Assembly (NCBI RefSeq): GCF_004010195.1 | Contig: NC_057755.1 | Location: 10,580,685 to 10,617,390 of the forward strand | Source of the DNA: Chiloscyllium plagiosum | Lineage: Eukaryota | Length of the DNA stretch: 36,706 nucleotides | Direction: 5' to 3' | Shown here: piece by piece, positions 3,001 to 36,584 of the stretch | Layout: each line of letters starts with the position of its first letter | How positions within the stretch are numbered: the first letter of the stretch is position 1 | Position numbers and translations under genes: made by a program | Notes under the pieces: generated by a model | Databases searched by the model: none | What the model was told of the DNA's origin: nothing | The model's input: the letters and a program-made list of their open reading frames with translations, nothing else

Positions 3001-5200
3001 ACCATTGCGTTTTCGATCCTTCCTTACATCCTTCATGTATTTTGCGATCCGTCCTTCCTTCCATCCAAAATCTCATTTTCAATTCATCCATCCTTCTTTC
3101 CTTCCATTCATAATGTCTTTTTCGATCTTGCCTTCCTTGCATCATTCCAACCTCGCGTGTTTGACGATTCCTTCCTTCCACCCTTCCATCCGTCTCATCT
3201 TTGTTGACCCTTCCTTCCATCCATCAATCATCTCTGTTTCGATCCTTCTTTGCTTACTTCCTTCTTGCCATCCATCTTCTGTTTTTCGATCATCCCTTTG
3301 ATCCATCCGTCATCTCTTTTACAACCCTTCAGTCCTTCCATCCATCGTCTCATTTTCTGTCTTTACTTCGTTCCATCCATCATCTATTTTCTGATGCTTC
3401 CTTCCTTCCGTCCATCAATCATCTTCGTCGATCCTTCCGTCTTTTGTTCCTTCCATCTATCCTCTCTTTTTTGATAATTCATTCCTTCCATCCATCATCT
3501 CTTTATCGGCCCTTCCTTCCATGTTCCTTTCTTCATTCCATCCATTCATCATCTCTGCTGTGATCCTTCATCCCATACATCATCTTTTTTTGATCCTTCC
3601 TTTTTGTTCCTTCTTAATTCCATCTACCCAACATAACTTTTTCGATCCTTCCGTTCTTACTTCCAACCATCATCTCTTTGTCGAACCATCCTTCCTTTCA
3701 TCCATCAATCATCTGTGTTTTGATCCTTTTTTGCTTCCTTCCTTCTGGCCATCCATCAAGCTTCTATGTTTTGATCCTTCTTTGCTTCCTTCCTTCTTGC
3801 CATCCATCTTCTGTTTTTCAATGGCTCCTCGATCCATTAATCATCTCTTTTTCAATCTTTCCTTCCTTCCACCCATCATCTCCTTTTCAATCCAACCTTC
3901 CTTCCATTCATAATCTCTACCTCTGATCTCCTTCCTACCATCCATCACCTCTTTTTCTATCCTTACTTCACTCCATCCATCATCTCTTTTCTGATCCTTC
4001 CTTCCATCGATCATTTCTATTTAATCCTTCCTTCCATTCGTCATCTCTTTTTTCGATCCTCCCTTCCTTCCATCCATCATCTTCATCGATCCCCCCTTAT
4101 TTCCTTCCTTCCATCTATTATCTCCTTTTCGATCCTTCCTGCCTTCCATTCATCATCTATTTGTCGATCGTTCCTTCCTACCTTCCCTCCATTCATCATC
4201 CCTTTATTGATCCTTCCTTCCATGTTTCCATCCATTATCATCTCTTTTTCGATCCTTCCTTTTTTGTTCCTTCTTATTTCCACCCATCCATCATCTTCCA
4301 TCCATATTCTCTTTTAGGATCCTACATTACTTCCGTCATTTCTCCTTCCTTTTTATCCATTGTCTCTTTTTTCGATTCTTCCTTCTTTGCATCCAACATC
4401 TCTTTTTCGATTCTGCCTTCCTCCTGTCCGTCAGATCCATCATCTCTTCTTCGATCCATCCTGCCTTCCATCTATCAGCTCATTAGCGATCCTTCCTTTC
4501 TTCTATCCATCATCTCTTTTTTTGATCCTTCTTTCCTCCCTTTCTTTCTTCCTTCATTCATCTTCTTTTCCGTCCTTCCTTCCTTCCATTCATCCATCCA
4601 CCGTCTCTTCTTCTATCCATGCTTCCGTCCTTTCATCCCCACTTCCTTCCCTCCATCCACCATCTCTTTTTCGATCCGTCATTCCTTCAATCCATCCATC
4701 ATCTTTTTTGTTCCTTCATTGCTTCCTTCCTTCCTTCCATCCACCATTGCGTTTTCGATCCTTCCTTACATCCTTCATGTATTTTGCGATCCGTCCTTCC
4801 TTCCATCCAAAATCTCATTTTCAATTCATCCATCCTTCCTTCCTTCCCTTCATAATGTCTTTTTCGATCCTGCCTTCCTTGCATCATTCCAACCTCGCGT
4901 GTTTGACGATTCCTTCCTTCCACCCTTCCATCTGTCTCATCTTTGTTGACCCTTCCTTCCATCCATCAATTATCTCTGTTTCGATCCTTCTTTGCTTACT
5001 TCCTTCTTGCCATCCATCTTCTGTTTTTCGATCATCCCTTTGATCCATCCGTCATCTCTTTTACAACCCTTCAGTCCTTCCATCCATCGTTTCCTTTTCT
5101 GTCTTTACTTCGTTCCATCCATCATCTATTTTCTGATCCTTCCTTCCTTCCGTCCATCCATCATCTTCGTCGTTCCTTCCTTCTTTTGTTCCTTCCATCT

Positions 5201-5862
5201 ATAGAACATAGAACATAGAACATAGAAGAATACAACGCAGTACAGGCCCTTCGGCCCTCGATGTTGCGCCGATCCAAGCCCACCTAACCTACACTAGCCC
5301 ACTATCCTCCATATGCCTATCCAATGCCCGCTTAAATGCCCATAATGAGGGAGAGTCCACCACTGCTACTGGCAGGGCATTCCATCAATTCACGACTCGC
5401 TGAGTAAAGAACCTACCCGTAACATCTGTCCTATACCTACCACCCCTTAATTTAAAGCTATGCCCCTTGTAATAGCTGACTCCATACGTGGAAAAAGATT
5501 CTCACTGTCGACGCTACCTAAACCCCTAATCATCTTGTACACCTCTATCAAGTCACCCCTAAACCTTCTTTTCTCCAATGAAAACAACCCCAAGTGCCTC
5601 AGCCTTTCCACATACGATCTTTCCACCATACCAGGCAACATCCTGGAAAACCTACTCTGCACCCGTTCCAGTGCCTCCACATCCTTCCTATAATATGGCG
5701 ACCAAAACTACACACAATACTCCAGATGCGGCCGCACCAGAGTCTTATACAACTGCAAAATGACCTCAGTACTCCGGAACTCAATTCCTCTACCAATAAA
5801 AGCCAGTACGCCATATGCCTTCTTCACCGCACTATTTACCTGGGTGGCAACTTTCAAAGATC
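5201..5862 (-). mobile_element. 5'-truncated CR1/HER1-type LINE (3' end of ORF2, 3' UTR and tail)
   Basis: Minus-strand translation 'RSLKVATQVNSAVKKAYGVLAFIGRGIEFRSTEVILQLYKTLVRPHLEYCV...EALERVQSRFSRMLPG...LGLFSLEKRRFRGDLIEVYKMIRG' matches the CR1 ORF2 C-terminus. A (TAGAACA)n tail lies at 5201-5227. Confidence 0.93.
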
Positions 5863-8800
5863 TCTTTTTTCGATCCTCCCTTCCTTCCATCCATCATCTT
5901 CATCAATCCCCCCTTATTTCCTTCCTTCCATCTATTATCTCCTTTTCGATCCTTCCTGCCTTCCATTCATCATCTATTTGTCGATCTTTCCTTCCCACCT
6001 TCCCTCCATTCATCATCCCTTTATTTATCCTTCCTTCCATGTTTCCATCCATTATCATCTATTTTGTGATCGTTCCTTCCCTCCATTCATCATCTCTTTT
6101 TCGATCCTTCCTTTTTTGTTTTTCTTAATTCCACCCATCCATCATCACTTTTTTGATTCTTTCTTCCTTCCATCCAACATCTCTTTTTCGATTCTTCTTT
6201 CCTTCCGTCCGTCAGATCCATCATCTTTTTTTTATCCATCATGCCTTCCATTTGTCAGCTCATTTGCGATCCTTCCTTTCTTCCATCCATCATCAATATT
6301 TTGATTCTTTCTTCTATCCATCATCTCTTCTTTTGGTCCTTCCTTCCTACCTTCCTTCCATTCATTCATCTACTGTATCTTCTTCGATCCTTGCTTCCTC
6401 CTTGCATCCTCACTTCCTGCCATTCATCCATCATCTCTTTTTCGATCCTTCAATCCATCGACCATTTATTTCGATCCTTCATTGCTTCCTTCCTTCCATC
6501 CATCATTGCGTTTTCGACTCTTCTTTCCATCCGTCTTGTCTTTATCGATCCGTCCTTCATTCCATCCAACATCTCATTTTCGAACCATCCTTCCTTCCTT
6601 CCTTCCATGCATCATCTTCATCGATCCCCCCTTATTTCCTTCCTTCTATCTATTATCTCTTTTTCGATCCTTCCTGCCTTCCATTCATCATCTATTTGTC
6701 GATCTTTCCTTCCCACCTTCCCTCCATTCATCATCCCTTTAGTGATCCTTCCTTCCATGTTTCCATCCGTTCATCATCTCTTTTGTGATCGTTCCTTCCC
6801 TCCATTCATCATCTCTTTTTCGATCCTTCCTTTTTTGGTCCTTCTTAATTCCACCCATCCATCGTCACTTTTTTTGATTCTTTCTTCCTTCCATCCAACA
6901 TCTCTTTTTCGATCCATCATGCCTTCCATCTGTCAGCTCATTTGCGATCCTTCCTTTTTTCCATCCATCATCACTTTTTCGATCCTTTCTTCTATCCATC
7001 ATCTCTACTTTCGGTCCTTCCTCCCTGCCTTCCTTCCATTCATCCATCTACTGTATCTTCTTCGACCCTTGCTTCCTACTTGCATCCTCACTTCTTGCCC
7101 TCCATCCATTATCTCTTTCTCGGACCTTCATTCCTTCAATCCATTGATCATCCTTTTTCGATCTCTTCATTGCTTCCTTCCTTCCATCCATCATTGCGTT
7201 TTCGATCCTTCCTTCCATCCGTCATGTCTTTATTGATCCGTTCTTCATTCCATCCAACATCTCATTTTTGAACCATCCTTCCTTCTTTCCTTCCATGCAT
7301 CACCTATTTTTCGACCCTGCCTTCCTTGCATCATTCTAACATCTCATTTTGATAATTCCGTCCTTCCTTCCTTCCATCCACCTTCTCTGTTTCGATCTTT
7401 CATTCCTTACTTCCTTTCTTCCTTCCTTTTTATCCATCTTCTCGTTTTCGATTCTTCCTTCCATCCATCTATTCTTCCATCCTTCCGTCCAACATTCCTT
7501 CCATCTATCATCTCTTTTTCGATCTCTCCTTCATTCATTCCTTCCCTCCATTCTGCCTTCCATCCATCCATCCATCCTCGCTTTGTCGTTCTTTCCTTTC
7601 ATCCATCCATCATCTTTTTTTATCCTTCCGTCCATCCATTATCTGTTTTTCGATCCTTCCTTCTTTCCATCATCTCTTTTTCGATGTTTCCTTCCTTCCA
7701 TCCATCATCGCTTTTTTGATACTTCCTGCCTTCCATCATCACTTTTTCGATCCTTCCTTTTTTCCTGCCTTCCATTATCTCTTTCTCGATTTCTCCTTCT
7801 TTGTTGCTTCCTTCCATTATCTCTTTTACGATCCTTCCTTCCTTCATTCTTTCCTTCCATCCTTCCTTCCATCCATCCTTCCATCCATCCTTCCAACGTT
7901 CCTTCCATCCAAAATCACATTTTCGATGTCTCCTTCCTTCATTCCTTCCTTCCATTCTGCCTTCGATCAATCCATCCTCGCTTTGCGTTCCTTCCTTCCA
8001 GCCATCATCGCTTTTTGATCATTCCTTCTTTCCAACCATTATCTGTTTTACGATCCGTCCTTCCTGCCATCATCTCTTTTTCGATCCTTCCTTCCTTCAT
8101 CCATCATCTTTTCTTCGATCTCTCCTTCATTGTTCTTTCCATCCTTTATTCCTTCCTTTTATCCATCATCTCTTTTTCGATTCTTCCTTCCATCCATCCT
8201 TTCTTCCAACCTTTCTTCCATCACTCCTTCCATCTATCGTCTCCTACTTCGATCTCTCCTTCATTCGCTCCTTCCTTCCATTCTGCCTTCCATCCATTCA
8301 TCTTTGCTTTGACGTGCCTTCCTTCCATCCATCCATTATCTTTGTTTGATCCATCCTTCCTTCCAGCCATTATCTGTTTTTCAGTCCTTCCTTCCGTCAA
8401 TCATCTTTTTTTGATACTTCCTTCCTTCCATCATCTCTTTTTCGATCAAACTTCTTTCCTGCCTTCCATTATCTCTTCTTCTTTCCTTCCTTGTTCCTTT
8501 CTTCCATTATCCGTTTTCCGATCCTTCCTTCTTTCCATTCATCCTTTTTTCTGTCCATCCTTCCACCATTTCTTCCATTCATCATCTCATTATCGATCTC
8601 TCCTTCCTTCATTCCTTCCTTCCATTCTGCCTTCCATCCATCTTTACTTACTTTGTCGTTCCTTCCTTCCATCCATCATCTCTTTTTGATCCTTCCTTCC
8701 TTCCATCCATTGTCTGTTTTACGATCCTTCCTGCCTTCCATCATCTCTTTTTCGATTCTTCCTTCCATTATCCATTATCTTTTTTTGATCTCTCCTTCGT

Positions 8801-9236
8801 TGTTCTTTCCTTCCTTTCTTCCTTCATTTTTATCCATCATTTCTTTTTCGATTCTTCCTTCCATTCATCCTTTTTTCACTCTTCCTTTCAACATTCCTTC
8901 CATCTATCGTCTCTTCTTCGATCTCTCCTCCATTCATTCCTTCCTTCTATTCTGCCTTCCATTCATCCATCCTTGCTTTGTCGTTCCTTCCTTCCATTCA
9001 TCCAACATCTTTTTTGATCCATCCTTCCTTCCATCCATTATCTGTATTTCGATGTTTCCTTCCTTCCATCATCTCTTTTTCAATATTTCCTTCCTTCCAC
9101 CCATCCATCTATCATCCCTTTTACGATCCTTCCTTCCTTCCATCTATCATCCCTTTTTCGACCCTTCCTTCCTTTTATCCGTCACTGCTTTTTCGATCCT
9201 TCCTTCCCTCCTTCTATCGATCGTCTCTTTACGAGC

Positions 9237-10081
9237 CCAAAAGAGAAAAATGCTGGAAAATCTCAGCAGGTCTGGCAGCATCTGTAAGGAGAGAAAAAAG
9301 CCGACGTTTGACCTTTGTCAAAGCTAAAAATAGGGACAAATTGTAAGGTATTTATACCAGGCTGAGAGAAGGCGAGTCATGGCTCACAAAGGTAGCGATA
9401 AAGAGGTGATAGTAACAGTGTATAGAGAGATTATAGGAAGATTAGGAGCTGTGAATGACCAAGACTGAAGACACTGCTATGTGACAAAATATGTGGTGGA
9501 TTTGGGGGATGGGTGAAGCAGAGTCAAAATGGAAAACAGGGGAGAAGGTAGCAAGGGGAAAGAGGAGAAGAAAAGGGTGATGAGAGAGTGGGGAGCGAGA
9601 GAAAGAGAGACAATCAAGAAATAATTGAAGAACAGTGAAAAAAATACAAAAAAGATAAATAAAATAAATGAAATAAAATTATGGAGCAGAATGAAAACAA
9701 AATGGTCGAGATGGGATAATCATCTGAACTTGTTGAATTCAATGTTGAGATCTGCAGGCTGTAACATGCCGAGTCGGAAGATGTTCCTCCAGTTTGCATT
9801 GAGCTTGACTGGAACATTGCAGCAGGCCAAGAACAGACATGTGGGTGTGGCAGCAGGATTGTGTGTTGAAGTAGCACATTACAGCCTGCCGGTCTGAACA
9901 CCTTCCCTAAACCTAGTATAAATGCCTCCCTATTTCTCCCTTTTTGTAGCTTTGACAAAGGGTCAGTTAGACTCGAAACGTCAGCTCTGTTCTCTCCTTA
10001 CGGATGCTGCCAGACCTGCTGGGTTTGTCCAGCATTTTCTCTTTTGGTTTCAGATTCCAGCATCCGCAGTAATTTGCTTTA
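9237..10081 (-). mobile_element. Penelope-like element fragment (GIY-YIG C-terminus) between inverted pseudo-LTR copies
   Basis: Minus strand ~9845-9722 reads HMSVLGLLQCSSQAQCKLEE..FRLGMLQPADLNIEFNKFR with a small indel. 9237-9362 is approximately the reverse complement of ~9910-10046. Confidence 0.8.
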
Positions 10082-12511
10082 ATCTCCTTTATGATCCTTC
10101 CTTCCTTGTACCTTCCTTACTTCCATCCAACATCTCTTTTCTGATCTTTCCATCCTTCCATCCATCATCTCTTTTTCGATTCCTCCTTATTTCCATCCAT
10201 CCGTCATCTCTGTTTTTATTTTCCAATCACCAATCCCTAATTTGTCGATTGTCCCTTTGATACATCCATCATCTCTTTCTTCAATCCTTCCTTTTTCCTG
10301 CCATCCATTATCTCCTTTTCAATCCTACCATCCGTCCATCCATTATCTCCATTTCTGTCCTTGCCACCTTCCATCCATCAGCTTCAGTTCTATCATTTCT
10401 TCGTTCCATCCATCATCTATTTTCCGTTCTTTCCTTCCTTCCCTCCAACCATCATCTTAGTCAATCCTTCCTTCCTTCCATTCATCATCCCTTCTTCGAT
10501 TCTTCCTTCCTTCCATCCATCATCTCTGTCGATCCATCCTTCCTACCTTCCTTCCATCCATCATCACTTTTACGATCCTTCCTTCCATTCATAAACTCTT
10601 TCGCGATCCCGTCTTCCTTCCATCCAACATCTCTTTTTCGATCCTGCCATCCTTCATTCCATACATCATCTCTTTGTCGACACTTCCTTCCTTCCATCCA
10701 TCAATTATCTCCGTTTCAATCCTTCCATGTTCCTTTCTTCATTCCATCCATTCATCATCTCCTTCGTTATTCTTCCTTCCTTCCATCCATCATTTCTTTT
10801 TCAATCCTTCCTTCCGTCCATCCATTAAATATATTTCTGTACTTCTTCCTTCCATCCATCACCTCCTTTTCTACCCTCCCTTCCTTACAACCAGCATGTC
10901 TTTTCTATCCTTCCTTCCTTCCCTCCATCCATCATCTCTTTTGCGATTCTTCCTTCCTTCCATGCATAATCTCTTTTTCGATCCTTCCTTCCATCCAACA
11001 TCTCTTTTTCGATCCTGCCCGTCGTTCCTTCCATCCATCATCTCTTTGTCGACACTTCCTTCCTTTCATCCATCAATTATCTCTGTTTCAATCCTTCTTT
11101 GCTTCCTTTCTTCTTGCCACCCATCTTCTGTTTTCCAATCGCCCCTTCGATCCATCCATCATCTCTTTTTCAATCCTTCCTTCCTTCCTTCCATCCGTTA
11201 TCACCTTTTCCATCCTACATTCCTTCCATCCATTATCTCTATTCATGTTCTCCTTCCTTTCATCCATCACCTCCTTTTTGGATCCTTCCTTCCTTCCATG
11301 ATGTTCGTTGATCCTTCTTTCATTCATCCTTCCATCTATCATCTCTTTTTCGATCCATCCTTCCATTCATCGTCGCTTTCTCAATCCTTCCTTCCCACCT
11401 TCCCACCATCCATTGTCTCTTTATCGATTCTTCCATCCATGTTCCTTTCTTCATTCCATCCATTCATTATCTCCTTTGTGCTTATTCCTTCCGTCCTTTT
11501 ATTCATCATCTCTTTTTCAATTCTTCCTTCCATCCAAGAAATCTATTTCTGTTCATCTTCCTTCCACCAATCATCTCTTTTTCGTTCCGTCCTTCCTTCC
11601 ATCATCACTTTTTCGATCATTCCTTCTTTGCTGCCAACTATCATCTCACTTTCGATCTCTCCTTCCGTGATCCTTCATTCCTTCCTTCCATCCATCATCT
11701 CCATTACGATCCTTCCTTCTTTGTTCCACCTTTCCTTCCATCCATCATCTCTTTTTCGATCCTTCATTTCTTTCATCCATCCATCACTTCATTCCAATCC
11801 GTTCTTCCTTCCTTCCTTCCACACATAATCTATTTTCGGATCCTTCCGTCCAGCCATCATCTCTGACTCGATCCTGCCTTTCTTGCATCCTTCCAACATC
11901 TCGTTTTTGATCATTCCTTCCTTTCTTCCTTCCATCCATCTTCTCTTCTTCGATCCTTCCTTCCTTCCTTTTCATCCATCATCACTTTCTCAATTCTCCC
12001 TTCCATCCATCTATTCTTCCATCCATCCTTCCAACATTCCTGCCCATCCATCATCTAATTTTCGATCTCTTCTTCCAACATTCCTTCCTTCCATTCTGCC
12101 TTCCATCCATCTATCCTCGCTTTGTCATTCCTTCCTTCCATCCATCCATCATCTCTTTTTGATCCTCCTCCTTACCATCCACTATCTCTTTTACGATCCT
12201 TCATTCGTTCCTTCCCTCACTTCTTTTCGATGTTTCCTTCCTTCCATCCATCGTATTGTTTTCAATCTCCCTTCGTTTTTCCTTTCTTCCTTCCTTCCAT
12301 CCATCATCTCCTTTACAATCCTTCCTTCCTTGTTCCTTCCTTCCTTCCATTCATCATCTCTATTTCGATGTTTCCTTTATTGGATCCATCATGACTTTTT
12401 GATCCTTCCTTCCCTCCTTCCATCCATCGTCTCTTTTAAAGTCCTTCCTTACTTGTTTTTCCTTGCTTCCATCCAACATCTCTTTTTCGATCCTTCCTTC
12501 CTTCCACCCAT

Positions 12512-13011
12512 NNNNNNNNNNNNNNNNNNNNNNNNNNNNNNNNNNNNNNNNNNNNNNNNNNNNNNNNNNNNNNNNNNNNNNNNNNNNNNNNNNNNNNNNN
12601 NNNNNNNNNNNNNNNNNNNNNNNNNNNNNNNNNNNNNNNNNNNNNNNNNNNNNNNNNNNNNNNNNNNNNNNNNNNNNNNNNNNNNNNNNNNNNNNNNNNN
12701 NNNNNNNNNNNNNNNNNNNNNNNNNNNNNNNNNNNNNNNNNNNNNNNNNNNNNNNNNNNNNNNNNNNNNNNNNNNNNNNNNNNNNNNNNNNNNNNNNNNN
12801 NNNNNNNNNNNNNNNNNNNNNNNNNNNNNNNNNNNNNNNNNNNNNNNNNNNNNNNNNNNNNNNNNNNNNNNNNNNNNNNNNNNNNNNNNNNNNNNNNNNN
12901 NNNNNNNNNNNNNNNNNNNNNNNNNNNNNNNNNNNNNNNNNNNNNNNNNNNNNNNNNNNNNNNNNNNNNNNNNNNNNNNNNNNNNNNNNNNNNNNNNNNN
13001 NNNNNNNNNNN
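12512..13011. other. Assembly gap (500 N)
   Basis: Run of N. Confidence 1.
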
Positions 13012-13383
13012 AAGGCTTTTGATAAAACCATACAGTCAATGGATTGAAGATGGCATTTTGTAAATCGGAATGTCTTCACTGGAGTTAAGACATCTTTTAT
13101 GAGCGTGGCATCTCCAAATTCAAGGAGACAATACAATATTTCAAGGAGACCTTTTTGGTTTCTCTCACTTTCCAAGTTGTGCACATAACTGTTGAATTTT
13201 TCTTTCAGCCAGTCTGATACATTTGAAGCTGTTTCAGAGTGTAGTTCTTCACAGTAAAACGCAATCTGTTTCACTGAATTTGGTGATGAGAGGCCAATGA
13301 AACAACGGGAAAAAAATTTAAACCTGTCGTCCATGCAGTTGTGCCATTCAGTAAGTATTTTTTTCACTTGGTCAGCTGGTGTA
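13012..13383 (-). CDS. NLR large exon, distal part (HD2 / transition to LRR), cut by gaps at both ends
   Basis: Open frame 'ADQVKKILTEWHNCMDDRFKFFSRCFIGLSSP...VSDWLKEKF...GLLEILYCLLEFGDATLIKDVL...FTKCHLQSIDCMVLSKA'. It resembles NLR HD2 motifs (RFxxGL, LxxLYCLxE, LxxxDCxxLS). Confidence 0.88.
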
Positions 13384-13850
13384 NNNNNNNNNNNNNNNNN
13401 NNNNNNNNNNNNNNNNNNNNNNNNNNNNNNNNNNNNNNNNNNNNNNNNNNNNNNNNNNNNNNNNNNNNNNNNNNNNNNNNNNNNNNNNNNNNNNNNNNNN
13501 NNNNNNNNNNNNNNNNNNNNNNNNNNNNNNNNNNNNNNNNNNNNNNNNNNNNNNNNNNNNNNNNNNNNNNNNNNNNNNNNNNNNNNNNNNNNNNNNNNNN
13601 NNNNNNNNNNNNNNNNNNNNNNNNNNNNNNNNNNNNNNNNNNNNNNNNNNNNNNNNNNNNNNNNNNNNNNNNNNNNNNNNNNNNNNNNNNNNNNNNNNNN
13701 NNNNNNNNNNNNNNNNNNNNNNNNNNNNNNNNNNNNNNNNNNNNNNNNNNNNNNNNNNNNNNNNNNNNNNNNNNNNNNNNNNNNNNNNNNNNNNNNNNNN
13801 NNNNNNNNNNNNNNNNNNNNNNNNNNNNNNNNNNNNNNNNNNNNNNNNNT
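13384..13850. other. Assembly gap (467 N) inside the NACHT exon
   Basis: Run of N. Confidence 1.
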
Positions 13851-14243
13851 TAAATGGAAAGATCACATCAATCTCTCGGTACATTTCACCTGCTGCCCAG
13901 CCATGTATTATTTTCTGTATTGTGGTACTTTTCCCAAAACCTGACGGTCCAATGATGAGAGTGGTCCCAGTGCCTCCCGTCTGATTACAATGTTTTCTCA
14001 GTAACCTATCTAACGGTATTTCTTCCCGATGGTTCTGCTCAGCTTTCCTCCAGATTTCTCCTCCTGCCGTACTCCTGGTCTTCAGTGTATTGTCTGTTTG
14101 TTCCTGCTCACCCAGTGAAGGAATAATAGTTACTTTGGTATATCTTTCACTCAGTGGAAATCTCTGAATTCTTCTGTTTTCTCCTGTTATTGTTAGATTC
14201 TCGTTCTTTTTGCGAAGGTAATGTTTGTGCTGCCGTTTTATAT
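13851..14243 (-). CDS. NLR large exon, proximal part: FISNA-like region and NACHT P-loop
   Basis: Phase-1 acceptor 'tattttaatttag|AT' at 14244/14243. Translation 'DIKRQHKHYLRKK...FPLSERYTKVTII...IPLDRLL...TLIIGPSGFGKSTTIQKIIHGWAAGEMYREIDVIFPF'. Walker A at 13950-13927, followed by the NLR-typical KIxxxWAxG..FxF. Confidence 0.93.
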
Positions 14244-17034: not shown

Positions 17035-18500
17035 CACCACTGCTGCAGCCTGGTGTGACTCCAATGCTACAGCCTGGGTCTGACTCCACTCCTACAGCCT
17101 GTACCTGACACAACTGCTGCAACCTGGGTCTGAATCCACTGCTGCAGCCTAGGCCTGACTCCACTGGTGTAGCCTGGGCCTGACCCCGCAGCTGCAGTCT
17201 GGGCCTGACCCCGCAGCTGCAGCCTGGGCATGACACCACTGCTGCAACCTGGGCCTGACACCACTGCTGTGGTCTGGGCCTGACTCGACTGCTGCAGCCT
17301 GGGCATGACACCATTGCTGCAACCTGTGCCAACTCCATGCTGCAGCCTGGGATTGACACCACTGTTGCCAATGGACCTGACTACACTGCTGCAGCCTGGG
17401 CTTGATTCCACTGCTGCAGCCTGGGCTTAACTCTACTGCTACAGCCTGGGCCTGGCTCCACTGCTGCAGCCTGCTCCTGACTCCACTGCTGCAGCCTGCG
17501 ATTGACTCCACTGCTACTGTCGGGACTGACTCCACCGCTGCAGCCTGGGCCTGACCCCACTGCTACTGTCTGGGCCTGACCCCACTGCTGCAGACTGGAC
17601 GTGACTCCACTGCTGTAGCCTGGGGAAACCTCCACTGCTGCAGCCTGGACCTGGCTCCACTGCTGCACCTGGGCCTGAATCCATTGCTGCAGCCTGCGCC
17701 TGACACAACTGCTGCAGCCTGGACCTGACTCCACTGCTGCATCCTAGGCCTGACACAAGTGCTGCTGCCTGGACCTGACTACACTGCTGCTGCCTGGACC
17801 TGAGTCCACCGCTGCAGCATAGGCCTGACTCCTCTGCTGCTGCCTGGAGTAGACTTCACTGCTTCAGCCTGGTCCTGATCCCACTGCTGCAGTCTGGGCC
17901 TAACTCCACTACTGTAGCCTGCGCCTGACTCCACTGCTGCAGCCGGAGCCTGACCCCATTGCTGCAGCCTGGGCCTGACTCTAATGTGCAGCCTGCATCT
18001 GACTGCTGGCTGCAGCAATGGGGTCAGGCCCAGGCTGCAGCAGTGGTGTCAGGCCCAGGCTACAGTCGTGGAGTTAGGCCCAGACTGCAGCAGTGGGATC
18101 AGGACTCCACTGCTGCAGCCTGGGCCTGACTCCACTGCTGCTGCCTGAGCCTGATTCCACTGCTGCAGCCAGGGCCTGACTCCACTGCTTCAGCCTAGGC
18201 CTGAATCCACTGCTGCAGCCTGGGCCTGGCTCCACTGCTGCAGTCTGGAACTGACACCACTGCTGTCACCTGGGCTTAACTCTACTGCTACAGCCTGGGC
18301 CTGGCTCCACTGCTACAGCCTGGGCCTGACTCCACTGCTGCAGCCTGGACCTGACTCCACTGCTGCAGTCTGGAACGGACACCACTATTGTCACCTGGGC
18401 TTAACTCTACTGCTGCAGCCTGGGCCTGACTCCACTGCTGCAGCCTGTCCCTGACTCCACTGCTGCAGCCTGCGCCTGATTCCACTGCTACAGCCGGGAC
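17035..18500. repeat. GC-rich 25-bp minisatellite (consensus GCCTGGGCCTGACTCCACTGCTGCA) with a 97-bp inverted block at 18008-18104
   Basis: Tandem units read directly. The ORFs here are period artefacts. Confidence 0.95.
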
Positions 18501-18509
18501 CTAACTCTA

Positions 18510-19630: not shown

Positions 19631-19905
19631 TACACATGTTCCAAGGTTCCAACTGAGTCGGGGGCATCAGTCTGCAATGTGCCTGCCATGCTTGCATTTC
19701 TTCTTTTCCTCACAGGACAGTGTATTCAATTTGTGAAATACAATACACGGAAAAATGCTTATGGTATTATAAACATGTGAAATTGATAGCTGTTCTGAAC
19801 TGTACTTTTCCTGAATTCATTCTCTGCTTTGAAAGTGGAGGGTGAGCTCAAATGAATTGAATAGCAGACTATTTATGTCCCTATATATAAAAAAAATAAA
19901 TTTAT

Positions 19906-20011
19906 AAATTATTAAGTAGATCTATATATATGTATACACACATACATATATATGTACATATATATGTATATACACATATATACGTACGTATATAGATCTA
20001 CTTAATAATTT
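19906..20011. repeat. Perfect 23-bp inverted repeat enclosing an alternating purine-pyrimidine (TA/CA/TG) tract
   Basis: AAATTATTAAGTAGATCTATATA (19906-19928) and TATATAGATCTACTTAATAATTT (19989-20011). Confidence 0.9.
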
Positions 20012-21586
20012 GCTATAAATTTCTTTTTTCAATTCCTTAGTAAAGCATTTGTTAACAGAAAGTCCAGCTATTATTTCATCCTTTTGCCTTACGATTCGAG
20101 CACACTCCTCACATTTTATTTTTGAACAAACTTCTATCCTGATTGCTGTTCATGTTTAAAATTAAGTTCCATATTCAGTAAAAGAGTTTAATCTTTCTGG
20201 ATGTTGAGAAGGTATTTAGTAATTTATATTTTTTCACCTACCGTTCACAATATTTTCTATGTGTGTGTTCAAATCACCCAAAGATAATTCATTTCTTACT
20301 TTGTCCACGGTTTCTAGTGCCTTGATAGTTCTGCACACTTTGTATTTACTTATTATTTCATCATCCAGCATTAAAAAGTGAACATCGAACTAAATGAAGA
20401 TTATTCTATCTGCTTGCATGCATAACGTTCTGCTGCCTATAAAATATACATGTAGTCACACTGTCTAATACAGTAATCTCCTTCCACATTGCAGAGAATA
20501 GAACACAGGGGTGCAACAGTTTTTTTTTTACAATGCTTCCATGACCCTGCACTCCTTTTGTTCTTTGCTTCAGATATCAAAGTCATGCATTCATTCAGTT
20601 CTGAGTAAGGGACACTTAACCTGAAATGTTAAGTCTGATTTACCTCCACAGATGCTACCACACCTGCTGAGATTTTCCAGTAATTTCTGTTTTGTTGTTC
20701 ACATATTGTCCCTGACTTTGCGACCACCTGACCTATCCATCAAGTGAATATGTGATGTAATCTGTTGGCTCAGGTGCATTGTTGAACAGTTAGTAATGTC
20801 ACCATTCAATTCTTCCACCAGCCAAAGTTATCATTCCAAGACTTTCTTTCTCGATATATTGCCTTGCCTGAGGTGTCATGACCCTCTACCACCAGTCAAT
20901 GCTCTCAACTGAAAGAGCAGGACTCTAGTGAATTTATGTTTACAACGAGATTGACTGGTCCCTGTAAAACTTTCAAAATCTAGTCATTTATTGGTCATTC
21001 GAACACACTTCAGAACGTCCCTCTGTGTATCATCTCACACCATTCAGGCTCTGCTACATTTGTCAATGTTCCACTGAACTGGCAGAACCAGGTTCTGCAA
21101 ACAAAAACTTTCCCTCATTCACTATGAACTAACGTGACATTTCTGTCTTGTTTCCAATTTTCTGAATTATGTCCAGCACTTCCAACACCATGCAGATAAT
21201 TTAAAAATTTTGAGAATAAATACAGATTGCCATGAACCTGAAGGTAAGTAATATTTTAGTGAAATAAAATTTCATTACTCGCTATCCTTCTGTTATTGTC
21301 CCTGAGATTTTTTTTATATTTCCTTTTGCCTTGTATCCTCAGGACTTCACATTTCACCACCTGATGCTGGGTCAGAACATAACAAAGCTTTGGTCAAAGT
21401 TTTGTTCAATGCATGAAATGAAATAACCTCATATACTTTCTTACATTGCATCGGGGCGGGGGGAGAAATAGATCATTACACAGACCTGACCTTCCATTAA
21501 CATCTAGAGTCATAGAGACATACAGCACAGAAACAGACCCTTTGGCACTACTTGTTTCATAAATTCAAGCAGTCCCAATTCGCTGT

Positions 21587-23143
21587 TAAACATCACACAA
21601 CACCAGGTTATAGTCCAACAGGTTTAATTGGAAGCACGTAGCTTTCGAAGCGACACTCCTTCATCAGGTGATAGTAGAAGGCTCGATCGTAACACAGAAT
21701 TTATAGCAAAAATTTGCAGTCTGATGTAACTGGAATTATACATTCAAACATTGATAGTCTGTTAAGCCTTTCATCCGTTAGAATACAGTGATAGTTTCAC
21801 TTCTTTCATGTGTAAATCACATTTTTTTTAAAAAAAAGTTGCATTCTCGGATTAGCTGTTAACAATGGTGATAGCTAGACAATATGTTGACGGTATTACC
21901 TCCCTGTGTTCTCTCTCTATGACCTGATGTTTAGATTGATTCTAATCTAAAAAGTGAGATATCAGAGTTTTACATAAATTCATGCAGTTTTTGAGCTCAG
22001 AGTTCTACATGAATGTGCTGCCTGTCCCAAAGTCAACTTTGGAGGATGGTCACCCGAAGGTCCGAGGTCGAATGTTCTGGACCACTGAAGTGTTCCCCAA
22101 CTGGGAGGGAACCCTCCTGTCTGTTGATTGTTGTGCGTTGCCCATTCACAACAATCAACAGACATGTGGGTTCCCTCCCAGTTGGGGAACACTTCAGTGG
22201 TCCAGGACATTCAGCCTCGGACCTTCGGGTGACCATCCTCCAAGGTGGACTTCGGGACAGGCAGCAGAGGAAAATGGCCGAGCAGAGGCTGATAGCTAAG
22301 TTCGGTACCCATAGGGAGGGCCTCAACCGGGACCTTGGGTTCATGTCACATTACAGGTGATCACCATTGCACTACACACACACACACACACACAGATATT
22401 CCCCCACACACACTCTCACATCTACACGGACACAGGTATACACAGACGCGCACACAGACACCCACACAAACCCTTATAGACACACATACTCCCACACTCA
22501 AACATGCACCCCATCACAGGCTTAAGACACTCTGCACTCACTATATACACACACTTTCTCACACTCACAACCCTCACCCCAGACAGACACACACACACAG
22601 ACAAAGACCCACATACAAATATATATTTTGTGGGGTGAATTTGTACTTGCAGAGTTATATTGCAGTTTGCTCAAAAAGTGCGTACATTCATGTAGAACTT
22701 TGAGCTCACAAACTACATGAATTTATGTACAACTGTTATCTCACTTTTTAGATTAGAATCAATCTAAACATCAGGTCATAGACAGAGAACACGGGGGCTA
22801 ACACCTTCAACATATTGTCTAGCTATCGTCATTGTTTACAGCTAATCCAAGAATGCAACTTTAAAAAAAGGGGTTTGTGATTTACACATGAAAGAAGTGA
22901 AACTATCACTGTATATTAACAGATGAAAGGCTTAACAGACAATCAATGTTTGAATGTATAATTTCAGTTACATCAGACTGCAAATTTTTGCTATAAATTC
23001 GGTATTGCAATCAAGCCCTCCGCTATCACCTGATGAAGGAGTGTCGCTCCGAAAGCTAGTGCTTCCAATTGTACCTGTTGGACTATGACCGGGTGTGTAA
23101 TTTTTAACTTTGTACACCCCAGTCCAACACCGGCATCTCCAAA
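21587..23143 (+). mobile_element. Penelope-like element with ~430-bp inverted pseudo-LTRs, an internal palindrome, a GIY-YIG C-terminus and a 12-bp target-site duplication
   Basis: 21587-22017 is inverted relative to ~22683-23108. + strand 'TTINRHVGSLPVGEHFSGPGHSASDLRVTILQGGLRDRQQRKMAEQRLIAKFGTHREGLNRDLGFMSHYR*'. TSD CCAATTCGCTGT at 21575-21586 and 23144-23155. Confidence 0.88.
23027..23061 (+). ncRNA. Minimal type I hammerhead ribozyme motif in a Penelope pseudo-LTR
   Basis: cac-CTGATGA-a-ggag tgtcg ctcc-GAAA-GC-TA-gtg: intact core, stem II, 3-bp stem I (cac/gtg) and a palindromic AGCT at stem III. Confidence 0.7.
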
Positions 23144-23965
23144 CCAATTCGCTGTATTTGGCTCAAAGACCTCTGAACCTTTCCTATCCATGTTCCTCTC
23201 CTTTTAAATGTTGTAATGGTACCTACATCTACAACTTTATCTTGCTGCTGATTAGTTTAACCTATCTTTATCTTTCTGAATAATAATAAATGGGTGGAGG
23301 GGCGCGGGGAGGGAGAGGACAATTAATATTTCGAATGACACTTACTACTGTAAATACTGAGGCAAAGAAATTATTCAACTGGTCTGCCTTCTCCCCAGAG
23401 TAATTGAAAATATCCCACTTTCCGTTTCTAATGAACCATCATTGCTCCTGAGCTGCCATTATGTGACTGTACAATCTCTTATCATTTTGATATCCCAAGG
23501 AAGTTTTCTTTAATATTCCCATTTGTAGTTCTTAAAAGCTACTTGGTGGCTGCTTTTTGGTCTTTGTGCCCTTAGCCAATCATCACCATTTATGCCGTGT
23601 GTGCACATGCAGCCTGTTTGAAATTGATTTCCCACTTGAATTTTTTCCTCTGATGTTATTCTCTGGTTAGAAAGTGAAGAATGAACCCAAATGAATTGAG
23701 TTACAAACTACATTGTCAGTGCAGTGATTTCTCTCATTTATCAAAAATTAGTCAACCCTTCTCAACCAACTTAGCTGCACTATCCTAAAAGTTTCTTGTT
23801 TGAATGGTTTCTAAAATATTTGTAAGTAATAAACTCAGCAATTATTTTTAGCTTGCATACAATTCCAGGACATGTTTGCAGTAAGTAATGTGCTGACTAT
23901 CATCCTTGTCTATGTATTATTTGAAAGTTCAGAATATGTTCAGCAATTTATATTTTAACACTTAC

Positions 23966-24031
23966 CTTGCAGAAAATCTTTTACATCTGCGTTCGGATAA
24001 CTCCAAGGTGTCTGAGTGCTTACTTCGAAAA
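23966..24031 (-). CDS. Predicted 66-nt internal exon D of the NLR gene (VFEVSTQTPWSYPNADVKDFLQ)
   Basis: Acceptor 'atatgttaacag|', donor 'CAAG|gtaagt', phase 1-1, open. It joins the NACHT exon as ...DFLQ|DIKRQHK. Confidence 0.7.
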
Positions 24032-24452
24032 CTGTTAACATATATGTTTGTAAAATTACTCGCAGTCTGAAGAATTGCACAAATCATAAAATTGCAACTT
24101 CACCATGAAATCACATTCCCAACAGGCTCAAAGTAGTTCTGTGATCCTAGGTTCCAAAATTCAACTGAGTCAGTAAACATCAGTCTGCACTGTACCCGCC
24201 CCAATTGTATTTTTTCTTGCCCTCACGAGACTGTGTATTCTATTTGTGAAATATGAAAATTTCAAAACGTGTTTATGCAGTACAGACATGCAAAATGGAT
24301 TGCCATTCTGCACATTATTTTTCCTGAATTGCTTGCTTGGTTTGAAAGTGGAGAATAAACTCAAAGGAATTGCATTGCAGGCTATTTATGTCTCCGCAAT
24401 TTTGTATATACATTTGTTGAAAATTAATGATCATATGTCAAATAGTCTAGTT

Positions 24453-24673
24453 TAGCTCATTTGGCTGGATTGTTGGTTTACAGTACAGTGTGATGTCAAC
24501 AGCGTGGGTTCACCTCCTATCACAGTTTGACGTTACCGTGAAGCACTCTCCCTCTCAACCTTTTCCCTTGCCTGCGATCTGGTGGCCCTCAGGTTAAATC
24601 ACCACCAGTTGCTTCTCTCTAATAAGAGAGCAGCCCCTACGGTTTCGTCAGACTATGGCGACACAACAACAGC
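24453..24673 (+). mobile_element. tRNA-derived SINE with 9-bp TSD, specific to duplication copy 2
   Basis: Head 'tagctca..tgg...gggttca', (CAA)n tail, TSD AGTCTAGTT at 24444-24452 and 24674-24682. Older relatives lie at ~20765-20930 and ~25437-25610. Confidence 0.7.
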
Positions 24674-27039
24674 AGTCTAGTTAACAAGTTGTTACAAGTT
24701 TCTGGTTTCAATTATTTACTGAAGCATTTGTAAACAATAAGGCTGGATATTACGTCGTCCTTTTGCTTTACGATTTGAGTATTTTTAAAAAACGTTCTGT
24801 GCTGATTGTTGGTTTCATTTGACAGAAAACTCCACATGCAGTAAAAGTTTAAATGTGCTGAATGTTGAGAAAGTATTTATTAATTTATATTTATACACAT
24901 ACCCTTTAGAATATTTTCTACGTATGTATTGGAATCACTCAAAGCTGATTCACTTCTTACTATGTCCAAAATATCTGTTGCCTTGTTAGTTTCACACACA
25001 CTTTATTTTGTTATCATATAATCGTCCCTTATTAAAAAGTGGAAGTGTCACTAAACAAAGACTGACCATCTATTAGATTAGATTATTGTCATGCATAACA
25101 CTCTGCTGTCTATAAAATATAAATGTAGTTACCCTCTCTCATACAATGATATCCTTCTACATGGCAGAAAATAGGACACAACAGTGCATCTGTGCTTTTT
25201 ACAATTCTAACCTGACCCTGCACTCTTTTTGTTCTTTGCTTCAGATATTAAAGTCATGTGATCGTTCAGTTCTGAGGATGGGTCACTCAATCCAAAATGT
25301 TACCTCTCATTTCTCTCAACAGATGCTGCCATACCTGCTGAGCTTTTCCATTAATTTCAGCTTTTATTGTTTATATATTCTCCCTGAGTTTGCGACCACC
25401 TGACCTATCTGTCAAAAGAATGTGTGACATAATCAATTAGCTCAAGTGGACTGGTAACCAGTTAGTGATGCCACCATTCAATCCTTCCACCAGCTCAGGT
25501 TAACACTCCAGTGCTCTCTTTCTGAACCTCTCCCCTTGCTGAGGTGTAATGACCCTCCAGTCAAACTACAACCTGTCAACTCACTCAACTGAGAGAGCAG
25601 GACTGTGGTGATTTTATCTTTACAACGAGATTGCTTGGGCCCTGTTAAACATGCAATAAATATCCAGTCATTTATTGATAATTCCACCATCCTGAAAACA
25701 TCCCTCAATGTATGATCTCAAACCATTCTGGGTCTGCTACAGTTGGCACTGTTCCATTGAACTGTCTCAACCAACTCCTGCTGACAAAATCATTCTCATT
25801 GACTATCAACTAACCTGACACTCCTATAGCGTTTTCAATTTTCTGAATTTGTCCTTCACTTTCAATGCCATGTACCTGACATAAAAATAAAAACTGATTG
25901 CCATGGAATCCAAAGATAAGTTGCATTTTAGTAAATTAAACGTTAATTACACATTATCCTTCCCTTCTTGTCTCTGATAAATTGTTGATCTTTCCTGTCA
26001 ACTTGCCTTGTACCATCTGGACTTTACATTTCACCCCAACTAATGCTGGAACGTACTATAACAAAGCTTTACGCAAATTTATATTCTATGTATAAATAAG
26101 TAACCTCATCGATACTTTTGTGCATCGCAATCAATGAGGAGAAATAGAATGTTACACAGACCTCAGATTAACCTAAGGAGTTATTGAGTCATTCAGCACA
26201 GAAACAAACCCTTTGGTACAACTTGTTTCACAAATGAAACCAATCCCTTTCACCTGTGTTTAGCCCATACCCCTCTCAACAGTTCCTATTTATCTAATTC
26301 ACCAGATGCCTTTAAATCTTGAAATTGTACCTGCATCTACAGCTTCCTCTTTCTGCTGAATAGTTTGGCCTATTTTTGTTTTTCTGAATGATAAGACGAG
26401 GGGTGAGGATAATTAATAATTCACAAAATGACACTTTCTAATTCAAATACTGAGGCAAAGTAATTATTCAACAGGTCTGCCTTTTCCCCCAGTCATCGAA
26501 AATTCCTATCTTTCAGATTTTAATGAGCCATCATTGCTCCTGAACTACGTTCGCGTAACTCTAAAGTTTCTTGCTATTTTAATGTCCCTGGCAAGTGTTC
26601 TTCCTCAATCATCAGGGTATTTGCTGCTTTTGCTGTTAGACAGACTAACCATTTGGAAGTGATTGTTCTTCTGACATTTTCGGGTTTCCTGCTCTTATTC
26701 CGTGTATACAAGTGAAGAATGAAATCAAATTAATTGAATTACAAACCTTGTATGTCCTTACAATCATTGCTCACATTTATCCAAAATTAATCATCGCACA
26801 TCAACAGATTTAATGAACAATTTCTTTAAGAATTCGAGTTTCAATAGTTTCTGAAACATTTGGAAAGTAATAAAACAGCTATTACTTTATTTTGCCTCAC
26901 AAATGCAGCATATGGGACGTGTTACACTTTTGTAAAAAAATAACATGTTGACTATCATCATTATTTTAGGAAAGCTTTAATCATAGTTTATTGTTTGAAT
27001 GTAGAGGGGATTTTCAGCAACATATATTTTGACACTTAC

Positions 27040-27105
27040 CTTGATGACTGTGTCCTTGGGCACGATACGAATTAAGTGGAGTTGTTTCATTTGCTGCTCT
27101 GAAAG
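27040..27105 (-). CDS. Predicted 66-nt internal exon C of the NLR gene (AFRAANETTPLNSYRAQGHSHQ)
   Basis: Acceptor 'atatgttaacag|', donor 'CAAG|gtaagt', phase 1-1, open. Confidence 0.68.
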
Positions 27106-27467
27106 CTGTTAACATATATGTTTGTAAAATTACTTTCTGTCTGAAGAATTGCACAAACCATAAAATTACAACTTCAAAGTTTAATCATATTATGACACTT
27201 ATTCACCAATAAAGAATAGAAATGATAAACTAAACAAAACTAATCAAAATTGAGTTGCCTTCATGTCTAACTTTGAAAATAATACAAACCTCACTGGATG
27301 CCGCATTGGTCACGAGAGAAAAATAGATATATAATCTATCAAATGAAAGATCAGAGGAGAGTTTCACGTGCACTCAAAATAGACACACTTTAAGCTGCCA
27401 CTTCATTATCTAAACACTGTTTAGGATTGTTAACATACTGAAAAAGATAATGTCACTCTTAACTCAC

Positions 27468-27656
27468 CATTTGTACCTTCAGTAGAATTACTTTGCGAGG
27501 ATTGTTGGGATTGCTCTTCACCAGAAGCTATGCTTTTTGACATTCGATAGAGATGACATAAACATGTCACCAATATTAAAATAAATATGAAAGCTATGAT
27601 GAGAGTAATAATTAAAGCAATCTTAACTGTATCCATTTCTACTGTAGCTTCATGTC
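27468..27656 (-). CDS. Predicted transmembrane exon B (189 nt): GHEATVEMDTVK-IALIITLIIAFIFILILVTCLC-HLYRMSKSIASGEEQSQQSSQSNSTEGTN
   Basis: Acceptor 'ttctttttttaaaatag|GA', donor 'AATG|gtgagt', phase 1-1. A ~22-aa hydrophobic helix is followed by Cys and basic residues. Confidence 0.78.
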
Positions 27657-27842
27657 CTATTTTAAAAAAAGAATAAACTCCAATCAGTTGTTATCATTGG
27701 AGGTTAATCTAATTTTTCATTTAATTCAGACTGATTCATCTATTCTCTACTTCATGAGCTCAGATCCCATGTTTGATTTTATGTCCCAGAGTCACTTTGC
27801 AGCTACTATGCACAATAATGCATGAAAAATATCCTTTAGATT

Positions 27843-36191: not shown

Positions 36192-36366
36192 CCTCATGTT
36201 TTTGAACATCTGCAGCATTGAATGGTTTCAGATATATCTTATCTTCGTTTTTATTAAGAGTGATTTTACCTTTGTCATCATTTGAAGTCACAAGATCTAT
36301 TTCTGTTCCTGTGCATATTCGAGCTGCAAACATGAGCCAGAGAAAAGCTCTAATTTCCCACTTCAT
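36192..36366 (-). CDS. Predicted first coding exon A: signal peptide and short ectodomain (MKWEIRAFLWLMFAARICTG-TEIDLVTS...VQKHE)
   Basis: Acceptor 'ataattttcag|' at 36378, 11 nt upstream of the ATG. Signal-peptide-like n/h/c regions. Candidate phase-1 donor GAGG|gtgatt at 36191 (moderate strength, so the 3' end is uncertain). Confidence 0.58.
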
Positions 36367-36584
36367 TCTGTTGACTTCTGAAAATTATAAAGCATGGCAG
36401 AACCGTTGTTATTCAAATATTAATGAAATGACAATTAATATACATTCTGACCCATATGCCTCTCAGCATGGATATCTCCACCTGTCAGATCAAGATCAAG
36501 ACAGGACTGTTCAGAAAGACCACAGCTGGCATTATTGTTTTCTCAAGCTCTATTTCGCACAATGCTTGACCAATTTTCTATTCA

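Follow-up and report, generated by a model that had tools for sequence, protein, structure and literature searches.

Exon D is a 22-codon exon of the bamboo shark Chiloscyllium plagiosum and belongs to an unusual module with a membrane anchor, beside an NLR gene. It has moved away from its duplicate, exon C, in a burst of change that appears to be real, specific to the D lineage, and probably driven by selection. The two exons are paralogous, symmetric (phase-1) members of a repeat module that lies behind a transmembrane (TM) exon. They were studied on the minus strand of the window, by which we mean the whole 36,706-nt stretch of DNA analyzed here (contig NC_057755.1, positions 10,580,685 to 10,617,390).

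Predicted gene structure

The predicted exon order in the window is signal peptide–TM–D–C–NACHT, with all junctions in phase 1, and the frame joined in this order is free of stops for 270 codons. The features are as follows (window coordinates; X1 and X8 are two runs of putative RNA described below).

36270..36377, minus strand: signal-peptide-like exon; ATG at 36366, phase-1 donor at 36270, AG/GT ends
27468..27656, minus strand: TM exon, 189 nt, phase 1-1; exon-sized read coverage, joint to D in X1 and X8
27106..27176, minus strand: conserved acceptor-side flank of D; 0.06 from the family majority
27040..27105, minus strand: exon D, 22-codon repeat, first behind the TM exon, accelerated lineage; 66 nt, AG/GTAAGT ends
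26178..26699, minus strand: terminal exon, two codons to a stop and then 3' UTR; joint 26699/27040 in X8 contig 14
24148..27039, minus strand: donor-side "intron" of D, duplicated; 77% identical to the copy behind C, partly 3' UTR in X8
24032..24102, minus strand: conserved acceptor-side flank of C; 0.07 from the family majority
23966..24031, minus strand: exon C, typical 22-codon repeat; 0.18 from the family majority, 66 nt, AG/GTAAGT ends
19635..23965, minus strand: donor-side intron of C, duplicated; inserted repeat at about 21585-23135
13012..14243, minus strand: NACHT/HD2 exon; predicted phase-1 acceptor at 14243, Pfam NACHT and NLRC4_HD2

The first exon is homologous to the N-termini of the protein models GCC18445.1 and XP_048476758.1 and was read by eye as signal-peptide-like. 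A longer open form of it (36192-36270) matches extra residues of the whale-shark model, which suggests two donors. Basic residues and cysteines behind the TM helix suggest that its C-terminal side is cytosolic. N-x-T motifs are present in D (27040-27105) and at the end of the TM exon (27468-27500), the latter being kept while x varies across copies; such motifs are odd for a cytosolic segment.

The NACHT/HD2 exon is interrupted by an N gap (13384-13849) and runs into a second one (12512-13011). The NACHT domain of the window, partial because it is cut by the gap, scores 27 bits with PF05729 (cut-off, 26.7), and PF17776 is matched as well; NACHT and the helical domains are complete in neighboring copies and relatives. 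A junction homologous to 14243 is used in the database models XP_043539047.1 and XP_048476758.1. No LRR exons were found in the window, where N gaps intervene; they follow the neighboring copies L018 to L021, and a match to the last exon lies at L011:1632-1721. A Pfam scan of four pieces of the window found no PYD. Repetitive DNA in the window includes an inverted repeat pair (88%) inserted in the C intron (21585-23108), a 1.5-kb minisatellite (17035-18507), and a 12-kb pyrimidine-rich satellite downstream of NACHT (1-12511).

Divergence of the duplicated exons and introns

Exons C and D are identical at 31 of 66 nt, and in the phase-1 frame they share the residue at 3 of 21 full codons; the junction residues differ as well (3/22). 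The adjacent acceptor-side flanks (24032-24102 and 27106-27176) differ at only 5 of 71 nt (66/71 identical, 93%). These counts, made by hand in an initial annotation of this DNA, proved exact on recount, and the shared length, phase, splice sites, and open frame that it described for the two exons were found as well. The remainder of the duplicated intron is alignable, as it had also stated: in a segment-wise alignment, used owing to the inserted repeat in the C copy, the alignable donor-side part is 77.1% identical over 2508 columns.

Sliding windows of 66 intron columns (n = 2313) contain from 42 to 59 matches, none of them 31 or fewer and none 61 or more, so the exon falls below every intron window and outside the local intron variance (binomial P(<=31/66) = 1e-7). 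The 71-nt flank lies above the sliding-window range (P = 4e-4 against the intron rate). There are two outliers beside the duplicated intron, a fast exon and a slow flank. Since the flank is itself an outlier on the conserved side, the relevant contrast is 47% versus 77% and not 47% versus 93%; the proposition that the exon is far more diverged than its surrounding intron stands against the intron as a whole, but the 93% flank is atypical.

Other causes of this pattern were considered. Gapped alignment does not restore the identity of C and D (35 matches in 83 columns, equaled by 96% of 500 middle-shuffled controls), and a shifted register is not involved, as the best alignment to the family majority is at shift 0. 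Recent gene conversion between C and D is not favored as the source of the 93% flank, both flanks being near the family majority and carrying private changes. The pairwise dN/dS of C and D is 1.1 (NG86), and their third positions differ at 8 of 21 codons (intron rate, 0.23; p = 0.09).

The 22-codon repeat family

A flank-profile search returned 22 matches, and a 23rd unit (L039) begins just before its exon; these copy counts are lower bounds, as the searched DNA comprised 10.48-10.72 Mb of the cluster contig and small targeted pieces. Of 20 family copies, 17 have an open phase-1 frame, whereas the other frames are open in 4/20 and 5/20. Dead or broken splice sites occur in many copies. Related repeats are found in protein models of whale shark (two behind TM, 13/21 alike), zebra shark, and C. 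punctatum, and together with the open phase-1 frame they indicate that the family is coding or was so recently. Exon C keeps 8 to 9 of 21 residues with the whale-shark repeats (9/21 to repeat 2), and D keeps 1 to 2. A paralogue with the order signal-TM-repeat-NACHT and with broken exons was also observed (L017:5294-7400 and L018:785-6062).

The divergence analysis kept 19 of the 23 units and dropped L033_0, L034_0, and L035_0 (disrupted) and L040_0 (truncated). A family-wide acceleration was rejected: across 78 non-D pairs the exon divergence is 0.309 and that of the donor intron 0.298, with the exon higher in 48 pairs, and the pooled C-class values are 0.273 for pN and 0.297 for pS. Among themselves, the C-class copies differ by 0.28/0.30/0.25 at codon positions 1/2/3, and the background omega of the family is about 1.2.

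Acceleration of, and probable selection on, exon D

The speed-up is one-sided, the D lineage being fast and C ordinary. In the exon, C lies 0.18 and D 0.48 away from the family majority. Compared with 13 non-D copies, D differs by 0.525 in the exon, 0.361 in the donor intron, and 0.181 in the flank. Divergence from the 12 C-class copies by codon position 1/2/3 is 0.60/0.66/0.38 for D and 0.56/0.68/0.28 for its paralogue L037; third positions of both are near the intron level, while first and second positions are doubled. Setting positions 1+2 against position 3, both measured from the family majority, gives Fisher p = 0.008 and 0.0007.

A two-ratio GY94 branch model (own implementation) was fitted to 14 copies and 21 codons, leaving out L017_0, L024_1, and L029_0 (indels), L038_0 (identical exon), and L039_0. 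It estimated omega at 7.5 on D and 1.2 in the background (p = 0.005 versus omega = 1 and 0.02 versus one ratio), a result matched by 1 of 334 null simulations. The D branch was picked after the data had been seen; its stem is the strongest of 17 branches, with p = 0.006-0.014 becoming 0.10-0.23 after correction for the 17 branches. D and L037 differ at 12 of 66 nt (10 nonsynonymous and 2 synonymous, NG86) against 0.064 in the adjacent introns, and the excess over the intron rate has p = 0.001 at N sites and p = 0.23 at S sites.

The TM exon is also raised between close copies (25/189; dN/dS about 1.4, not significant). NACHT, which served as a control, is under purifying selection: its dN/dS is 0.55 over 578 codons and 0.37-0.60 toward the N-terminus. 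The HD2 values approach neutrality (0.82-1.0). The donor intron of D is likewise somewhat more distant and has more private changes, and the relative-rate comparison of exon and intron gave Fisher p < 0.05 with 1 of 10 outgroups. No exon excess was seen between L037 and its dead relative L017 (0.39 versus 0.40). Frame, length, and splice sites are kept in all four close D copies, one of them with GTCAGT.

On these 21 codons, with a test that is nonsignificant after branch correction, episodic positive selection on the D lineage is likely. The accelerated and positively selected linker suggested by the initial annotation is accordingly narrowed: it is probable for the D lineage, but C and the other non-D copies evolve no faster than introns.

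Timing of the burst

The D exon of C. punctatum is 18/21 identical to that of the window (TM, 46/62); at 8 residues the window's D and L037 differ, and at 7 of these it agrees with the window. L037 and L017 share derived states in the numbers 7/6/2 by codon position, which dates part of the burst to before these two diverged. The bulk of it would have preceded the split of the two bamboo-shark species, with little change since. A continuing acceleration between species is not borne out, and selection that was episodic and largely finished would be explained more readily by a switch of partner than by an arms race still under way.

Transcript evidence

Four runs were placed on the stretch 23700-27800, which leaves NACHT outside; X1 and X8 were guessed to be RNA. 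Two of the four (X1 and X8) contain the TM-D joint at the predicted splice sites, whereas a D-C joint and a TM-C joint are listed in 0/4. No read joined TM, D, or C to NACHT within that stretch. Run X19, 2% of which was read, gave one TM-exon read with differences and no joint, and X4 had no records placed. The transcripts come from close copies and not from the window's own, with 24 TM differences in X1 and 15 in X8: X1 is of the L037 type, all 21 listed differences matching L037, and the X8 contig lacks the L037 base in D. Exon D is spliced, then, in a relative of the window's copy. The X1 contig continues for about 620 nt with no listed match in 23700-27800. X1 also has an exon-sized piece of high depth on C, ending near the C donor by arithmetic from two depth bins and with no listed joint; C is probably spliced. 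Together with the open frames of the family and the repeats in shark models, the TM-D joints uphold the view that the exons are real.

In X8, D is joined to 26699 and the contig runs on to at least 26178. On the window frame, this TM-D-terminal transcript is predicted to stop at codon 119 and to encode a protein of 118 aa without NACHT. Further X8 contigs reach about 24587 at depth 8-13, and two bins in the D-to-26699 intron are empty. With near-continuous X8 depth (8-17), the terminal exon may reach about 24587, and much of the D-C "intron" may be a long 3' UTR in one X8 transcript. The genomic acceptor of the terminal exon is GG, not AG, in all four D copies, so the expressed allele or the splice is unusual. 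The role of D and C as a linker, which had initially been assumed, is weakened in that the only transcript followed past D ends in this terminal exon, inside the "intron" and without NACHT.

Three smaller observations were made in the same region. In an X8 contig, 47 nt that resemble the conserved acceptor flank (24056-24102) lie upstream of the TM exon, and sequence of this kind may have a second role in a 5' exon. Near 26595, the window lacks 63 nt that are present in L037, L038, L039, and the X8 contig. In the C intron, an AG at about 23670 occupies the place homologous to the terminal-exon acceptor of D, so C may have a terminal exon of its own.

Relatives and the predicted link between TM and NACHT

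A neighboring NACHT frame is 100% identical to a C. plagiosum protein, and its other best matches are carpet-shark "NLRP3/12-like" proteins (NCBI), with 58-82% identity. The whale-shark model XP_048476758.1 has the order TM-repeat-repeat-NACHT and uses both repeats together, and in a C. punctatum model the NACHT to which D is joined is of a different type. A hydropathy peak of at least 1.8 precedes NACHT in 7 of the 16 shark and ray matches examined (16 of 19), and in 5/5 zebra-shark and 6/7 catshark NACHT isoforms, all of them gene models. Neither the TM exon nor the C. punctatum N-terminus, used as protein queries, retrieved anything new; a further protein search gave three proteins. A NACHT of a second type, 85% similar to the one joined to D in C. 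punctatum, was seen at L009:5281-7001, about 60 kb downstream on the same strand, with an apparent frameshift near the P-loop.

No FIIND, CARD, or PYD was detected in any of the seven relatives scanned (Pfam, E <= 0.001); in the window's own copy, the 3' end falls into N gaps. Lacking FIIND and CARD, these proteins fall outside the NLRP1/CARD8 tripwires, and lacking PYD, they fall outside a strictly defined NLRP subfamily.

Explanations for the divergence of D

On balance, we lean toward the explanation that selection on a binding surface made D diverge from the other repeats. The repeat module behind the TM exon would have evolved in a birth-and-death cluster of shark NLRP-like genes, in which C changed at about the intron rate and most changes acquired by the D lineage fell at first and second codon positions. 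These would reflect an episode of positive selection on a cytosolic segment close to the membrane; most of the episode would predate the divergence of the two bamboo-shark species, and part of it the divergence of D from a relative that is now dead. Proteins made from the module would cross the membrane once and carry D in the cytosol, as the basic residues after the helix suggest. One putative RNA run points to a short form, in which a D copy followed by the terminal exon would yield the 118-aa single-pass protein with a tail ending in D. The module could have a dual use: short NACHT-less proteins would have it as their tail, and some copies or isoforms would place it as a spacer before NACHT-LRR. 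The driver would most likely be a changing protein partner of the tail, either a pathogen factor or a paralogous NLR. The 71-nt flank would be conserved through constraint near the acceptor, exaggerating the contrast.

An unlikely alternative is that the exon is old and its flanks are younger. The D and C lineages would have drifted since an ancient split, the flanking introns having been partly homogenized by unequal crossing-over or gene conversion, and D and C were possibly joined from different paralogous genes. The close D copies are mosaic, the D of L038 being identical to the window's while its donor-intron variants are common with L037, which indicates that conversion is at work in the cluster. 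D-type exons stand behind TM exons in several paralogues, D is grouped with the old relative L017 in the exon tree (bootstrap 94) but not in the intron tree (43), and the C. punctatum model places D before a different NACHT type; the third positions of C and D also exceed the intron rate, though at p = 0.09. However, age should have raised third positions at least as much as the others, and they stay near background (0.28-0.38 versus 0.56-0.68). The 71-nt flanks lie near the family majority and have private differences, a pattern for which constraint accounts better than recent conversion does.

Selection on a binding surface, as preferred here, might be extended to a more specific proposal, which we consider rather unlikely as a whole: shark single-pass membrane NLRs would have a cytosolic stalk of 22-residue repeats, the first of them changed by positive selection, and splicing to either the nearby terminal exon or the NACHT exon would make a decoy or a full sensor. 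This guard/decoy reading envisages one module in a vertebrate that supplies a 118-aa NACHT-less decoy and a full sensor with the same tail.

It is improbable that D and C form a protease-bait tripwire, that is, a pathogen-driven cleavage region between anchor and NLR whose cutting releases or activates a putative sensor, as initially proposed. Positive selection on D, the open frame of the window from signal peptide to NACHT, and the position of the repeats between anchor and NACHT in the whale-shark and C. punctatum models are compatible with it, and the positively selected linker of NLRP1 provides a precedent (PMC7857732). Yet the activation of NLRP1 requires a FIIND-released CARD (PMC7857732), whereas the seven relatives have no Pfam FIIND, CARD, or PYD and the neighbors end in LRR exons. 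In addition, D is better preserved between species than the TM exon, unlike recurrent arms-race sites, and the transcript followed past D has no NACHT. Slightly less probable still is chance or a local burst of mutation, acting on a 22-residue spacer that is under almost no constraint in a decaying cluster; this would suit the background omega, the dead splice sites, the clustering of 7 of the 12 D-L037 differences within 13 nt, and the small numbers, but not an exon below all intron windows, a codon-position bias of p = 0.0007-0.008, the kept frame, length, and splice sites of the close D copies, or neutral simulations of which 1/334 was as extreme.

Comparison with known systems

Exons that outpace introns are known from multigene families such as snake-venom phospholipase A2 and the MHC peptide-binding exons, where conversion can add to the effect. 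The shark case has the same excess of coding over intron divergence but is confined to one repeat lineage and to a cytosolic segment. As exons outrunning introns in immune clusters are a known pattern, the bare observation would not surprise a specialist; its added value is the location, a cytosolic segment behind the membrane anchor of an NLR-like gene.

The whale shark possesses an expanded NLRP-related NLR family, whose receptors are termed intracellular (PMC8455134). Its NACHT-WH-HD2-LRR core and its tandem expansion and turnover are common to the bamboo-shark cluster (PMC8455134), which is placed with this family by similarity only. The passages of that source describing the family include neither a TM exon nor 22-codon repeats, and one of its two uses of "transmembrane" concerns 7-TM receptors (PMC8455134), whereas the bamboo-shark cluster has both such exons and repeats. 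Like D, the tripwires of NLRP1 and CARD8 are short low-complexity segments N-terminal to NACHT with an excess of amino acid change (PMC7857732). In the shark relatives scanned, by contrast, no FIIND or CARD was found, a membrane anchor replaces the PYD, and selection appears episodic and not recurrent.

A predicted N-terminal TM ahead of NACHT, the order also predicted for the shark module, has been described for membrane-bound NLRs of anthozoans and, weakly, of sponges (PMC3879445, PMC5094078). The anthozoan type has 3-5 TM helices and is called an anthozoan innovation (PMC3879445, PMC5094078), while the shark module has one helix behind a signal-peptide-like exon, a vertebrate host, and a putative short isoform. 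In our literature searches, which covered openly accessible papers, no listed title or abstract opening described a shark TM-NLR. Should the short isoform and the link from TM to NACHT both prove true, they would provide a model, open to testing, for the placement and regulation of effector-less shark NLRs, with D as the surface under selection.

Membrane targeting may be a trait of the wider family, judging from the protein models. Four relatives from shark and ray (P0011, P0012, P0016, and P0018) begin with Met-Gly, presumably resembling myristoylation sites, and others have TM segments. The catshark model P0013 has about 100 helical-looking residues before NACHT (no Pfam match at 0.001) and two hydrophobic segments around a short cysteine-containing stretch.
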